This document shows positions 1 through 3,548 of a DNA stretch of 4,143 bases, in pieces. The position numbers and the translations under genes were made by a program. Within the stretch, counting starts at the first letter, position 1. Every line of letters begins with the position of its first letter. The stretch spans positions 1-4,143 of the IMG/VR virus record IMGVR_UViG_2671180878_000004; one strand, 5' to 3'. Source of the DNA: a virus (taxonomy: Duplodnaviria; Heunggongvirae; Uroviricota; Caudoviricetes). The notes under the pieces were generated by a model. That model had not been told where the DNA came from and did not search any database. It was given only the letters and a program-made list of their open reading frames with translations.

Positions 1-30
1 GGTATATTTTCTGACAGACAGTGACGGGTG

Positions 31-57
31 TTGTCAAGATATTGTGTCATTTATAAC
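31..57 (+). promoter_or_regulatory. Candidate sigma70 promoter (late pR'-like): -35 TTGTCA, -10 TATAAC
   Basis: TTGTCA at 31-36 and TATAAC at 52-57, spacer only 15 nt (suboptimal). It lies about 80 nt upstream of a strong intrinsic terminator and just upstream of the lysis genes, where lambdoid late promoters sit. Weak call; the real pR' may lie upstream of the window. Confidence 0.25.
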
Positions 58-135
58 CTGAATCAGGGGAGGCCGGAATGTTATCTGGCATTTTTAGCAG
101 AGCCTGAATGCCATAATCACGGCTCCCGGAGTTGG

Positions 136-170
136 CCGTCAGTGGGTGACACTGGCGGTTTTTTTGTTTT
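136..170 (+). terminator. Rho-independent terminator (tR'-like late leader terminator, expected target of Q antitermination)
   Basis: Seen in sequence: 9-bp stem CCGTCAGTG (136-144) / CACTGGCGG (150-158) with one G-U pair and a 5-nt loop GGTGA, followed by TTTTTTTGTTTT (159-170). It sits directly upstream of the holin gene, as tR' does in lambdoid phages. Confidence 0.65.
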
Positions 171-215
171 TCTTTACTTTCATTTTCTGTCGGCGGTGAC
201 GGAGACATACATCAG

Positions 216-422
216 ATGGAAAAAATCACAACGGGTGTGTCATACACCACGTCAGCGGTGGGGACGGGATACTGGTTACTGCAGCTGCTGGACAAAGTCT
301 CTCCGTCCCAGTGGGTGGCGATAGGTGTGCTGGGGAGTCTGCTGTTTGGCCTGCTGACGTATCTGACAAACCTTTATTTCAAGATTAAAGAAGATAAGCG
401 TAAGGCGGCGCGGGGAGAGTAA
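216..422 (+). CDS. S: Class II holin, pinholin of the phage 21 S21 family (68 aa)
   Basis: Translation [68 protein letters not shown] is near-collinear with phage 21 S68 as recalled (two TMDs, conserved SPSQW...IGVLGSL...[11 protein letters not shown]...RKAARGE tail). GGAGA at 201-205 serves as RBS. First gene after the terminator. Confidence 0.9.
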
Positions 423-426
423 AGCG

Positions 427-771
427 ATGAAGAAAAAATACGAACTGGTTGTTAAAGGGATAAATAATTACCCGGATAAGATTACTGTTACTGTGGCACT
501 GGAAATTGGTGGGTATCCGTCACTGTTGTTGCCAGATGTGGCGATTAGTCTTGACCGTACTGAAGGTGCCACGCTGGAGTTTTACGAAGCTGAGGCGAAA
601 AAGCAGGCGAAGCAGTTTTTCATGGATGTTGCTGCCGGGTTATGTGAAGGGGATGGTCCGTTGCCGGAAAAGCGCCCCGTAATTTTAGAGGCGCAGGATG
701 TGTTGATAACCTACAGAGGAAAACTACCGGGAATAATTACTGGTTCTCTGAAGACTCCACCGCTGGCCTGA
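427..771 (+). CDS. Hypothetical 114-aa soluble protein between holin and endolysin (positional analogue of small DUF-type ORFs such as ydfR in E. coli cryptic prophages; not verified)
   Basis: ATG at 427 is 4 nt after the holin stop, with GGGGAGAG as RBS 9 nt upstream (translationally coupled layout). No TM segment or recognisable catalytic motif. Coding call rests on ORF length, RBS and context. Confidence 0.65.
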   Translation: MKKKYELVVKGINNYPDKITVTVALEIGGYPSLLLPDVAISLDRTEGATLEFYEAEAKKQAKQFFMDVAAGLCEGDGPLPEKRPVILEAQDVLITYRGKLPGIITGSLKTPPLA

Positions 772-821: not shown

Positions 822-1355
822 ATGAACGCAAAAATCAGATACGGCCTGTCGGCTGCCGTTCTGGCGCTGATTGGTGCAGGGGCGTCTGCGCCTGAAATCC
901 TCGACCAGTTTCTTGACGAAAAAGAAGGTAACCACACCACGGCATACCGTGATGGTGCGGGTATCTGGACCATCTGCCGCGGTGCCATCTTGGTGGATGG
1001 TAAACCTGTCGTTCCGGGCATGAAGTTGTCGAAGGAAAAATGCGACCGGGTTAACGCCATTGAGCGTGATAAGGCGCTGGCATGGGTGGAGAAAAACATC
1101 AAAGTGCCGCTGACCGAACCCCAGAAAGCGGGGATCGCGTCATTCTGTCCGTACAACATTGGTCCCGGTAAGTGTTTCCCGTCGACGTTTTACAGACGAA
1201 TTAATGCAGGTGATCGAAAAGGTGCCTGCGAAGCGATTCGCTGGTGGATTAAGGACGGTGGCAGAGACTGCCGTATTCGTTCAAACAACTGTTACGGTCA
1301 GGTATCCCGTCGTGACCAGGAGAGCGCGCTGGCGTGCTGGGGAATCGACAGATAA
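822..1355 (+). CDS. R: SAR endolysin (signal-anchor-release lysozyme, T4-lysozyme/GH24 fold, R21 family)
   Basis: 177-aa product with an N-terminal Gly/Ala-rich weakly hydrophobic SAR segment (YGLSAAVLALIGAGASA) and catalytic-triad spacing E-x8-D-x5-T (EGNHTTAYRDGAGIWT) as in phage 21 R and P1 Lyz. Pairs with the pinholin upstream. No obvious Shine-Dalgarno ahead of ATG 822, which is the first start codon after an in-frame stop at 813. Confidence 0.9.
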   Translation: MNAKIRYGLSAAVLALIGAGASAPEILDQFLDEKEGNHTTAYRDGAGIWTICRGAILVDGKPVVPGMKLSKEKCDRVNAIERDKALAWVEKNIKVPLTEPQKAGIASFCPYNIGPGKCFPSTFYRRINAGDRKGACEAIRWWIKDGGRDCRIRSNNCYGQVSRRDQESALACWGIDR

Positions 1356-1511
1356 GAAGAATATTTTGCTGAAAAATGAGGTTTGCTCACACGGACGGAT
1401 AACACGAAATCCTGCGAACTGACAAAACCTAAGTGAATAAAAGTAAAAACCACGTTTGTTGGCAGCAAGCGGGGTTTTGTGTTTCTGACCTTGGATAAGG
1501 CAAGGGAGAAC

Positions 1512-1694
1512 ATGGAAAAGTATAAACGAATTCTGTTGAGGTTGACTATGAAAAACGGCCTTGAACTGAAAGCGCCAGTAACTGATGACATCAGCAGAGC
1601 ACAGGCTTTTGCTATTAAGTGGGTGGCGGTCGGTATTGCTGTGTCTCCGATGCTGTATGGGCTGGCAAAACTGGTCATTGCGTTGAAATCGTGA
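1512..1694 (+). CDS. Hypothetical small membrane protein (60 aa, C-terminal TM helix)
   Basis: ATG at 1512 preceded by AAGGGAG. Product [60 protein letters not shown] has a basic N-terminus and one C-terminal hydrophobic helix. The ORF track's GTG start at 1479 has a poorer RBS. No homolog recognised. Confidence 0.4.
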
Positions 1695-1706
1695 AGAGGA
1701 TTAAAC

Positions 1707-1838
1707 ATGTCAGACAAACTCATAATGCTGGCGAAGATCCTCTGTGTAATCGTCGGCATTTCATTTTCACTAATGCTGGTTGCTCTTTTTCTTTCCATGG
1801 GCTGGATGATGTTATCTTCGTCGGGGCTGCTGGGGTGA
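1707..1838 (+). CDS. Hypothetical hydrophobic peptide (43 aa, single TM)
   Basis: ATG at 1707 with strong RBS AAGAGGA 7 nt upstream. It starts 12 nt after the previous ORF's stop and ends 11 nt before the Rz start. Product [43 protein letters not shown] is almost entirely one TM helix. Absent from the ORF track, presumably because of a length cut-off. Confidence 0.35.
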
Positions 1839-1849
1839 GCATAAACCGA

Positions 1850-2308
1850 ATGCTTTCCGCGTTTACCGTTATTCTGCTGGTGGTCTGTGGTGCGCTTAGT
1901 CTGGGGCTGAATCATTACCGCGATAACGCCATCACCTACAAAGCGCAGCGCGATAAAAAAGCCAGAGAGCTGGAGCTGGCAAACGCAACCATTACTGATA
2001 TGCAGGTGCGCCAGCGCGATGTTGCTGCGCTCGATGCAAAATACTCGAGGGAATTAGCCGATGCGAGAGCTGAAAATGAAACTCTGCGTGCTGATGTTGC
2101 CGCTGGTCGTAAGCGCCTGCGGATCAACGCCACCTGCTCCGGTACCGTGCGTGAAGCCACCGGCACCTCCGGCGTGGGCAATGATGCCGCCGTCGAACTC
2201 TCTCCGGTTGCTGGACGAAACGTTCTCGGTATCAGAGACGGAATCATCAGCGACCAGGCTGCATTGAGAATGCTTCAGGAATATATCCGTACTCAGTGTA
2301 TTAACTAG
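1850..2308 (+). CDS. Rz: Rz i-spanin (inner-membrane spanin subunit, 152 aa)
   Basis: From ATG 1850 the product [65 protein letters not shown]... matches lambda Rz closely as recalled ([33 protein letters not shown]). N-terminal signal-anchor TM plus coiled-coil periplasmic domain. The 229-aa ORF-track version is an artefactual N-terminal extension. Confidence 0.9.
2061..2267 (+). CDS. Rz1: Rz1 o-spanin (outer-membrane lipoprotein), fully embedded in the +1 frame of Rz
   Basis: Product [39 protein letters not shown]... has a lipoprotein signal peptide with lipobox LVVSAC and a proline-rich mature region, as in lambda Rz1 (MLKLKMMLCVMMLPLVVVGC...CVKPPPPPAW). GAGGGA upstream of 2061. Start could instead be the Met at 2076. 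Confidence 0.85.
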
Positions 2309-2331: not shown

Positions 2332-2556
2332 ATGAAGAAATTACTGGTAACCGTAAAGCCTTTTCAGGGAACAATTCCGTTCCGTATTTTGCAGCGTGGT
2401 CGTGTTCTTGTTGAAGGTTCGTTCAGTGGTAAATGTACGCAATTACACTCCCGGACCTTTCAGGTGAATGCCACGAATGAAGAGCTAACCGTTGAGTGTA
2501 CGATGAATGCCGCTAAATGCCGTATGGTATCGGCTGCATTACAGCCAGTGTGTTGA
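2332..2556 (+). CDS. Hypothetical small Cys-rich protein (74 aa)
   Basis: ATG at 2332 with GGAG 5 nt upstream; the track's start at 2314 is TTG. Product MKKLLVTVKPFQGTIPFRILQRGRVLVEGSFSGKCTQLHSRTFQVNATNEELTVECTMNAAKCRMVSAALQPVC has four Cys and no TM. Occupies the Rz-to-cos interval where lambdoid phages carry morons (bor in lambda). Confidence 0.5.
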   Translation: MKKLLVTVKPFQGTIPFRILQRGRVLVEGSFSGKCTQLHSRTFQVNATNEELTVECTMNAAKCRMVSAALQPVC

Positions 2557-3002: not shown

Positions 3003-3548
3003 ATGAAGGTTAATAAAAAGAAACTTGCCGAAATTTTCAAAGTGGATCCGCGAACGATTGAACGCTGGCAGTCTCAGGGGCTCCCTTGCGTCTCCGGAGG
3101 TGGTAAGGGCGTTGAATCTGTATTTGATACCGCCACGGCAATTCAGTGGTATGCGCAGAGGGAAGCTGATATCGAAAATGAAAAACTCCGTAAAGAGGTT
3201 GAGGATTACAGGGCTGCCAGCGAGGCAGATCTCCAGCCTGGGACTATTGAGTACGAACGCCATCGACTTACGCGTGCGCAGGCTGACGCCCAGGAGCTGA
3301 AGAATGCCAGAGACTCCGCAGAAGTGGTGGAAACCGCATTCTGTACTTTCGTGCTGTCACGGATCGCAGGTGAAATTGCCAGTATTCTTGACGGGATCCC
3401 TCTCTCAGTACAGCGGCGTTTTCCGGAACTGGAAAACCGACATGTTGATTTCCTGAAACGGGATATTATCAAAGCCATGAACAAAGCAGCCGCGCTGGAT
3501 GAACTGATACCGGGGTTGCTGAGTGAATATATCGAACAGTCAGATTGA
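3003..3548 (+). CDS. nu1: Terminase small subunit (gpNu1 / phage 21 gp1 type, 181 aa)
   Basis: 181 aa, the same length as lambda Nu1. N-terminal winged-HTH region [36 protein letters not shown]... is related to but clearly diverged from lambda MEVNKKQLADIFGASIRTIQNWQEQGMPVLRGGGKG... From about [18 protein letters not shown] to the C-terminus it is nearly identical to lambda Nu1 as recalled. Sits just downstream of cosB. Confidence 0.92.

Follow-up and report, generated by a model that had tools for sequence, protein, structure and literature searches.

Introduction

Why does a lambdoid prophage carry two small membrane-peptide genes between its endolysin and its spanins? The lysis cassettes of lambdoid and Shiga-toxin (Stx) phages are textbook systems and are thought to be complete with a holin, an endolysin, and spanins. 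The DNA that raises the question is a stretch of 4,143 nucleotides (nt) from IMG/VR virus record IMGVR_UViG_2671180878_000004 (the window hereafter), the late region of a lambdoid prophage in which all genes lie on the plus strand. Its lysozyme gene R and its spanin gene Rz are separated by 494 nt, positions 1356-1849, which are 100% identical to the chromosome of Escherichia coli O145 RM9872 and to about 20 further strains. A first-pass annotation had placed in this interval two open reading frames (ORFs), ORF-A and ORF-B, encoding products of 60 and 43 amino acids (aa), each preceded by a Shine-Dalgarno (SD) sequence, co-oriented with the lysis genes, and packed among them as in an operon. 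All of this was confirmed, with 12 nt between the A stop codon and the B ATG and 11 nt between the B stop codon and the Rz ATG at 1850 (Table 1). It had also contrasted the locus with lambda, phage 21, and cryptic prophages of E. coli. For K-12 the contrast is correct: in Qin of strain K-12, whose lysozyme is 90% identical to R of the window, rrrQ overlaps rzpQ and the interval is zero.

Judging from coding signatures and comparison with related loci, we conclude that A is, and B probably is, a gene for a small inner-membrane protein, both belonging to interchangeable families of single-transmembrane (TM) peptides that occupy the lysozyme-spanin interval of R21-type lambdoid/Stx prophages. As to their role, we tentatively favor, with a probability of roughly 40%, accessory late-expressed inner-membrane modulators of lysis, and we weigh this reading below against four others.

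Results

Two small membrane proteins

ORF-A is clearly coding. Across 26 nucleotide alleles its frame has a ratio of nonsynonymous to synonymous substitution rates (dN/dS) of 0.19 versus 0.99 and 2.7 in the other two frames, and its variable sites are distributed 23/15/43 over the three codon positions. Distant members of the family keep a soluble motif, YKRILLRL-(T)-MK(N/D)G..AP(V)T, before the TM helix despite many nucleotide changes, and protein-level conservation of the N-terminal motif holds through nucleotide changes in the GER2-type form as well. From N- to C-terminus the product has a basic amphipathic segment (residues 2-14), a linker that is conserved (MKNGLE..APVT), and, at about residues 32-58, the TM helix; its Kyte-Doolittle 19-residue maximum is 1.90, at residues 38-56, with a net charge of +4 on the N-terminal side of that stretch. 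An AlphaFold model based on a 14-sequence alignment has a helix of low confidence at residues 2-14, a loop, and a helix at residues 23-59 with a predicted local distance difference test (pLDDT) score of about 84.

ORF-B is probably coding. Of the three frames, its own shows the lowest dN/dS (0.57; the others 0.78 and 1.10) and contains zero stop codons, and it is maintained even where the start codon is shifted 5′ so that it overlaps an Ant-like gene's stop. The Kyte-Doolittle maximum of the product, 2.89 at residues 11-29, bears out, together with that of A, the earlier description of both as single-TM peptides. The accompanying claim that these are real genes and not noise is strong for A and moderate for B: among relatives the A frame is constrained, and the B frame is kept, yet frameshifted in 10 of about 150 copies (~7%).

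The Rz frame is open for 77 codons 5′ of the annotated ATG (1619-1849) and spans all of B. At other loci this upstream Rz frame is fused to an A′ fragment, giving proteins of 83-90 aa that belong to phrog_3246. We considered whether the frame running across B and continuous with Rz is the real gene; with a dN/dS of 1.10 and stops in 6 of 29 alleles it is probably non-coding, and the B frame is preferred.

Both products are already present in databases as anonymous entries. PGAP names them hypothetical proteins WP_072095843 (A) and WP_001280927 (B), and the profile searches suggested earlier return PHROG families of unknown function for both, phrog_1115, phrog_4493, and phrog_3246 for A (E 5.9e-42, 3.4e-29, and 1.2e-18) and phrog_4906 for B (E 3.1e-21), with none from Pfam. 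The first-pass annotation recognized no homolog; in fact there are hundreds of protein homologues, nearly all in Escherichia or Salmonella prophages and in Stx phages, none of them functionally named. An A profile run against 1.84 billion representative proteins found 21 relatives only. A literature search found no paper on the A or B genes. Three points described below are likewise absent from searchable papers: how the families are structured, that the peptides are universal before Rz in this group of phages, and that A is likely to have a dual start. Two internal origins were also considered and dropped: A and B as paralogues (hhalign probability 5%, unsupported) and B as a duplicated signal-anchor of Rz, for which BLASTP gives no alignment.

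A slot never empty in the sampled relatives

The comparison of the interval took in about 250 related loci, drawn from IMG/VR, from phage records, and from assemblies of Salmonella. Within a sample anchored on R (80 loci with a lysozyme at least 95% identical to that of the window), 74 loci reach Rz, and every one of these 74 carries at least one small single-TM peptide gene before Rz, with R abutting Rz in none. Because all 74 hold such a gene, the A-B pair is not the peculiar insertion it was first taken for; it is one of about eight arrangements of the slot. Three peptide families were distinguished: A, which includes a 28-aa TM-only form (C) and the 50-aa GER2-type form ending in IRWW; D/E, a second tail-anchored family with a common N-terminal DFSKLIRE(I/L)R(V/L)M motif; and B. 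The commonest element is B, which tblastn locates in 191 phage records, the majority of them from Stx2a and Stx1a converters. One of them is the archetypal Stx2 phage 933W (locus L179, NC_000924.1; 3421-3570), whose 153-nt gap between ant and Rz, unannotated in the reference, encodes a 49-aa B homologue with a start that overlaps the ant stop.

The earlier suggestion that the R-Rz junction tolerates cargo is well founded, since two Ant-like genes (933W carries such a gene), two kinds of DNA methyltransferase, and IS629 also occupy it, and the comparison of junctions resolves the interval into a mosaic of recombining modules. The methyltransferases, recognized solely by motifs in their translations and mutually unrelated, are inserted between the peptides and Rz; one is 311 aa long with a DPPY motif (L008/L020, ~3490-4430) and the other is a 255-aa Dam-like protein (L102/L124/L129, e.g., L102 2753-3520).

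The segment is present in 1,926 of 5,426 complete E. coli genomes (cover reaches 80% or more in 990), at a median of two copies and a maximum of 14. The A and B genes also occur in propagating phages, namely PhiR12/PhiR5 (listed hosts K-12 and E. coli C) and Stx2a phages. In Salmonella, A stands alone, 10-20 nt before Rz, in cassettes with three holin/endolysin combinations, one of which pairs a lambda-S-type holin with a soluble GH19 endolysin. The recurrence of A before Rz in all three contexts indicates that its positional partner is Rz, and neither the signal-anchor-release (SAR) lysozyme nor the pinholin. A species-wide genome scan, first by alignment and then with a degenerate DNA pattern, matched unrelated bacteria by chance only; the breadth described here is therefore that seen in the IMG/VR, phage, E. 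coli, and protein collections.

Signals for transcription and translation in the interval

The 90 nt directly after the R stop codon are conserved, non-coding, and move with R: they are ~94% shared with Stx1 and Stx2 phages that have other downstream cargo, whose match ends at 1510, and they can be aligned in part with Salmonella loci. A terminator-like hairpin follows, ~35 nt 5′ of the ORF-A start codon. It is kept in the E. coli, Salmonella, D-type, and GER2-type modules and in two distant loci (L181 and L182), with differing inner-stem sequences, and its upstream A-tract and T-rich tail mean that it can terminate on both strands. A long-range helix between 1399-1413 and the 3′ arm of the terminator was discarded on inspection because its pairs are not preserved in Salmonella. 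Rfam, searched at E up to 1, has zero small RNA (sRNA) families in the 494-nt interval.

No sigma-70-like site was found on the plus strand of this interval, including between the hairpin and the A ATG, and no terminator was found between B and Rz in the window. With a terminator upstream and no plus-strand promoter, A, B, and Rz would be reached only by Q-antiterminated late transcription.

These signals bear on the possibility that the peptides are moron-type membrane proteins unrelated to lysis, acting for example in superinfection exclusion (by blocking DNA entry or protecting the cell) and riding in a recombination-tolerant slot. In favor of this, the slot is a cargo site shared with Ant-like genes, methyltransferases, and IS629; the peptide modules are extensively shuffled, and A-family genes occur in classic moron positions, after tail-fiber genes flanked by terminators (L090, L182) and beside a small membrane-protein moron (L180). 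The L090 homologue lies between two terminators and has no recognizable promoter. The window itself fits a moron poorly: a plus-strand promoter usable in the lysogen was not found, a terminator stands right upstream of A and none between B and Rz, and PADLOC, searched at E up to 1, has no match for A or B. Moreover, coupling to Rz and a constant peptide directly before it would be unneeded by an independent moron. We regard this explanation as unlikely, though it is the most credible of those that compete with lysis modulation.

The junctions are tight or overlapping throughout (GTGA, TGAnATG, ATGA); C and D end in TGAnATG, and the Ant stop overlaps the B start. In the window, a GTG in the Rz frame overlaps the TGA stop of B (GGTGA) and is probably where Rz starts, by translational coupling. 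Where ATT replaces the 1850 ATG, as at several loci, Rz must start at the overlapping GTG. Junctions of this kind suggest that the peptide ORFs are translationally chained to Rz.

Coupling could, on the other hand, be the whole point of the ORFs. They might encode peptides of little or no function and serve as spacers that bring ribosomes to Rz after cargo broke an ancestral R-Rz overlap, with B perhaps a decaying relic. The stop/start overlaps with Rz, including those at loci that lack the ATG and need the GTG, would follow from this, as would the coincidence of the peptides' C-terminal residues (…IRWW, …ALKS) with the SD region of the next gene and, for B, the dN/dS of 0.57 and the recurrent frameshifts. 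It accounts poorly for the strong purifying selection along the whole of A, including the soluble motif, for the hydrophobic helix kept in all three families, which a mere spacer does not need, and for A genes located where no Rz follows. Of the readings weighed here we consider it the least probable.

A candidate second start and an antisense site in ORF-A

Met13 of A is invariant, and a GAGG precedes it. The rare Arg codon AGG from which this GAGG is built is shared by E. coli, Salmonella, GER2, L181, and L182; L090 has other amino acids at this site and still retains GGAGG. The sequence thus suggests that A has two start sites, yielding a 60-aa form with a +3 amphipathic extension and a 48-aa form with a net-neutral N-tail. 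The D and E peptides have an N-terminal DFSKLIRE(I/L)R(V/L)M followed by an internal Met, which echoes this layout of extension plus internal Met (D: L095/L097/L185; E: L206); a clear internal SD was not seen in D.

The same region holds a 48-nt island that is perfectly identical between E. coli and Salmonella, and, on the minus strand, a sigma-70-like site. The latter is a hypothetical promoter, a candidate for driving an antisense RNA of ~65-70 nt that would cover the A ribosome-binding site and end at the hairpin. The window holds two promoter-like sites versus 3.7 expected from shuffles, a count below expectation.

Were this promoter real, A could be a type-I-toxin-like peptide, its leaky expression silenced in the lysogen by a cis antisense RNA from 1548-1519 that the late transcript titrates out. 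A is a 60-aa single-TM peptide, and B, at 43 aa, is likewise a small hydrophobic peptide with one TM helix. The minus-strand -35/-10 elements (9/12 matches) occupy one position across all A-family lineages, the -10 being TATACT, or TATAAT in L181; the identity island between genera covers the site; and the predicted antisense RNA consists of a 5′ hairpin and a terminator with a U-run, with a z-score of -2.9 in the common allele. Against this, the number of promoter-like sites does not exceed the shuffle expectation, much of the island can also be accounted for by the internal SD and Met13 together with amino-acid conservation, and the hairpin of the window has C-A mismatches on the minus strand. 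Further, Rfam and the hidden Markov models (HMMs) of toxin families (Hok, Ldr, TisB, Ibs, ShoB, DinQ) give no match, and A lacks the promoter of its own and the long 5′ untranslated region typical of type I toxins. We judge a toxin of this kind to be quite improbable.

The rest of the window

The order of the cassette is pinholin, YdfR, SAR lysozyme R, the 494-nt interval, Rz/Rz1, a 74-aa ORF, cos, and terminase (Nu1 and the large subunit), as collected in Table 1.

Table 1. Features of the window and their coordinates
Feature	Position	Strand	Remarks
Phage-21-type pinholin	216-422	+	PF04971
YdfR/DUF1327 gene	427-771	+	Between holin and lysozyme
Lysozyme R	822-1355	+	PF00959; N-terminal SAR-like segment; upstream border of the slot
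Conserved non-coding stretch	1356-1445	+	Directly after R stop; moves with R
Terminator-like hairpin	1446-1486	+	Stems 1446-1451/1473-1478 and 1453-1460/1464-1471; T-rich tail; upstream A-tract
SD-like AAGGGAG	1502-1508	+	For ORF-A; kept in all alleles
ORF-A	1512-1694	+	60 aa; predicted tail-anchored inner-membrane protein
Identity island in A	1518-1565	+	48 nt; 100% identical in E. coli and Salmonella, rest of gene differs by ~26%
Sigma-70-like site	1519-1548	-	Hypothetical; -35 TAGTCA 1548-1543, 18-nt spacer, -10 TATACT 1524-1519
Internal GAGG	1538-1541	+	6 nt before Met13 ATG
Met13 ATG of A	1548-1550	+	Candidate second start; 48-aa isoform
SD-like AAGAGGA	1694-1700	+	For ORF-B
ORF-B	1707-1838	+	43 aa; essentially a single TM helix (~residues 5-35)
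GTG in Rz frame	1835-1837	+	Overlaps B TGA stop; probable coupled Rz start
Rz i-spanin	1850-2308	+	PF03245
Rz1 o-spanin	2061-2267	+	PF06085; embedded in Rz
74-aa ORF	2332-2556		After Rz; phrog_2571, function unknown
Nu1	3003-3548	+	Large terminase subunit next

The YdfR/DUF1327 gene is 63-99% identical among otherwise similar loci, many of which have no match, and its position looks like a second variable slot of the same cassette. At its start region the pinholin of the window reads ATA CAT CAG ATG (I-H-Q-M; 204-218), where most related loci have ATG TAC CAG ATG (M-Y-Q-M); lacking the upstream Met of the dual-start motif, this prophage may make no antiholin isoform. A tie between peptide type and loss of the pinholin dual start was considered and set aside, as there is no association and MYQM is found in most loci of every type.

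The 74-aa ORF aligns only to positions 100-172 of the 291-position phrog_2571 profile and may therefore be a fragment; 933W and VT2phi_272 have bor on the opposite strand in its place. Upstream of Nu1, GGGCGGCGACCT at 2818-2829 matches the 12-nt cohesive end of lambda cosN, and a long inverted repeat at 2921-2979, in the presumed cosB region, is the source of a spurious Rfam match to MIR8001. At the other end of the window, a strong intrinsic terminator with a T-run (134-160) lies just 5′ of the holin. Prophage sRNAs PasA and PasC have been placed between a SASA esterase gene and the holin (bioRxiv 10.64898/2026.05.13.724894); locus L001 has a SASA esterase gene upstream, and Rfam has zero family matches in window positions 1-215.

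Discussion

Taken as modulators of lysis, A and B would be transcribed late, along with S, R, and Rz, once a Q-modified RNA polymerase passes the hairpin, and their translation would be chained from A to B to Rz by way of the 12-nt gap and the overlap of the B stop with the Rz GTG. As infection ends, the peptides would then act within the inner membrane. They would be dispensable modulators, and their target may be holin triggering, membrane energization, release of the SAR lysozyme, or the spanin. Both have the general attributes of holins and antiholins, being small, having at least one TM domain (TMD), and being encoded beside the endolysin, between R and Rz. This reading draws on the coding signatures, the late-operon signals, the candidate dual start of A, and the constant position before Rz, also in propagating phages. 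Precedents for such a role are P2 LysA, P1 LydB and LydD, Mu gp25, and BSPM4 ORF52, none of which is a sequence relative of A or B.

Several observations weigh against this interpretation. Neither peptide matches a Pfam or NCBIfam family (A not even at E up to 10), whether holin, antiholin, releasin, or toxin, and alignment to pinholin S gives hhalign probabilities of 1.3% for A and 0.2% for B. The constraint on B is weak, as its frameshifted copies indicate. Lambda and Qin lyse, or are built, without such a peptide. Position alone proves little, because the slot also holds plainly non-lysis cargo such as the Ant-like genes and methyltransferases, and A-family genes are found outside lysis cassettes, with no lysis gene close by, after tail-fiber genes (L090/L091, L182), before a tape-measure gene (L181), and, at L180, beside another gene for a small membrane protein.

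We also considered whether the TM helix of A is a copy of pinholin TMD2. A BLASTP alignment of 10/27 residues (E 0.001) and a chimeric sequence, P0117, hinted at this, but the hhalign probability and the lack of a Pfam match led us to reject homology. In P0117, a 554-nt ENA contig, the pinholin N-terminus is joined to the A C-terminus at a shared WVA(V/I)G motif, and at the joint S and A share an 11-nt identity, AGTGGGTGGCG. The contig implies a microhomology deletion of YdfR and R, or else an assembly artifact.

A bolder version of lysis modulation would make the A and D/E families and B a near-universal pre-spanin component of R21/Stx-type cassettes, a new single-TMD holin/antiholin-like or spanin-gating regulator, locked to Q and possibly under antisense control, that times lysis and Shiga-toxin release. 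We think this improbable, if a little less so than a type I toxin. There is a possible gap in the standard model, in that every sampled relative with this lysozyme type has at least one conserved single-TM peptide gene chained to Rz. If the peptides tune lysis, burst size would be affected, as would when and how much Shiga toxin enterohemorrhagic E. coli releases; if they have no lysis role, the slot is a clean example of a recombination hot spot that gathers small membrane cargo. Whichever role holds, annotators gain a concrete family definition and a flag for a likely dual-start gene.

Comparison with known systems

Work by Ziermann and colleagues in 1994 reportedly described LysA of phage P2 as a membrane protein whose gene lies between that for endolysin K and the spanin genes lysB/lysC, non-essential and affecting the timing of lysis. 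The order of endolysin, membrane-protein gene, and i-spanin is that of A and B, whereas LysA, at ~140 aa with several TMDs, comes from a different phage lineage. Dual-start holin/antiholin pairs, S107/S105 in lambda and S71/S68 in phage 21 (the latter PF04971), resemble A as small membrane proteins of a lysis cassette with two in-frame, SD-preceded starts, of which the second is a candidate in A, and with a longer form that is the more positive. The extension in A, however, is 12 residues compared with 2-3 in those holins, A has one C-terminal TMD, and a pinholin is already part of its cassette. What type I toxin-antitoxin systems (hok/sok, ldr/rdl, ibs/sib, zorO/orzO) have in common with A is a single-TM peptide of at most 60 aa, many prophage copies per genome, and a cis-antisense RNA over the ribosome-binding site, which in A is a candidate; A differs in matching no family HMM or Rfam entry, in having no promoter of its own, and in being embedded in and coupled to a late operon.

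The releasin gp25 of phage Mu (DUF2730, PF10805) is an accessory lysis factor encoded a few genes downstream of a SAR endolysin (PMC9239132). Like A, it is small, cytoplasmic, and tethered to the membrane, and hardly any of it reaches the periplasm. The topologies differ: the TMD of gp25 is N-terminal (N-out/C-in) and its cytoplasmic domain of 73 aa is acidic, whereas the TMD of A is C-terminal and its short cytoplasmic part is basic (net +4). Neither A nor B matches DUF2730, and A is also found alongside a non-SAR GH19 endolysin. Fine-tuning of holin function by small TMD proteins is known from LydB, LydC, and LydD of P1 (PMC9025707) and ORF52 of Salmonella phage BSPM4 (PMC11657625), and single-TMD lysis regulators, LysF1b and LysA2b, have been described in mycobacteriophages (PMC13056207; bioRxiv 10.64898/2026.08.27.747656). 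All are unrelated to A and B in sequence and host, and their roles rest on genetics. The gene for one single-TMD mycobacteriophage regulator is separate from the cassette and close to tail genes (bioRxiv 10.64898/2026.08.27.747656), and in this the mycobacteriophage proteins are like some members of the A family, whose genes likewise lie outside the lysis cassette and even beside tail genes.

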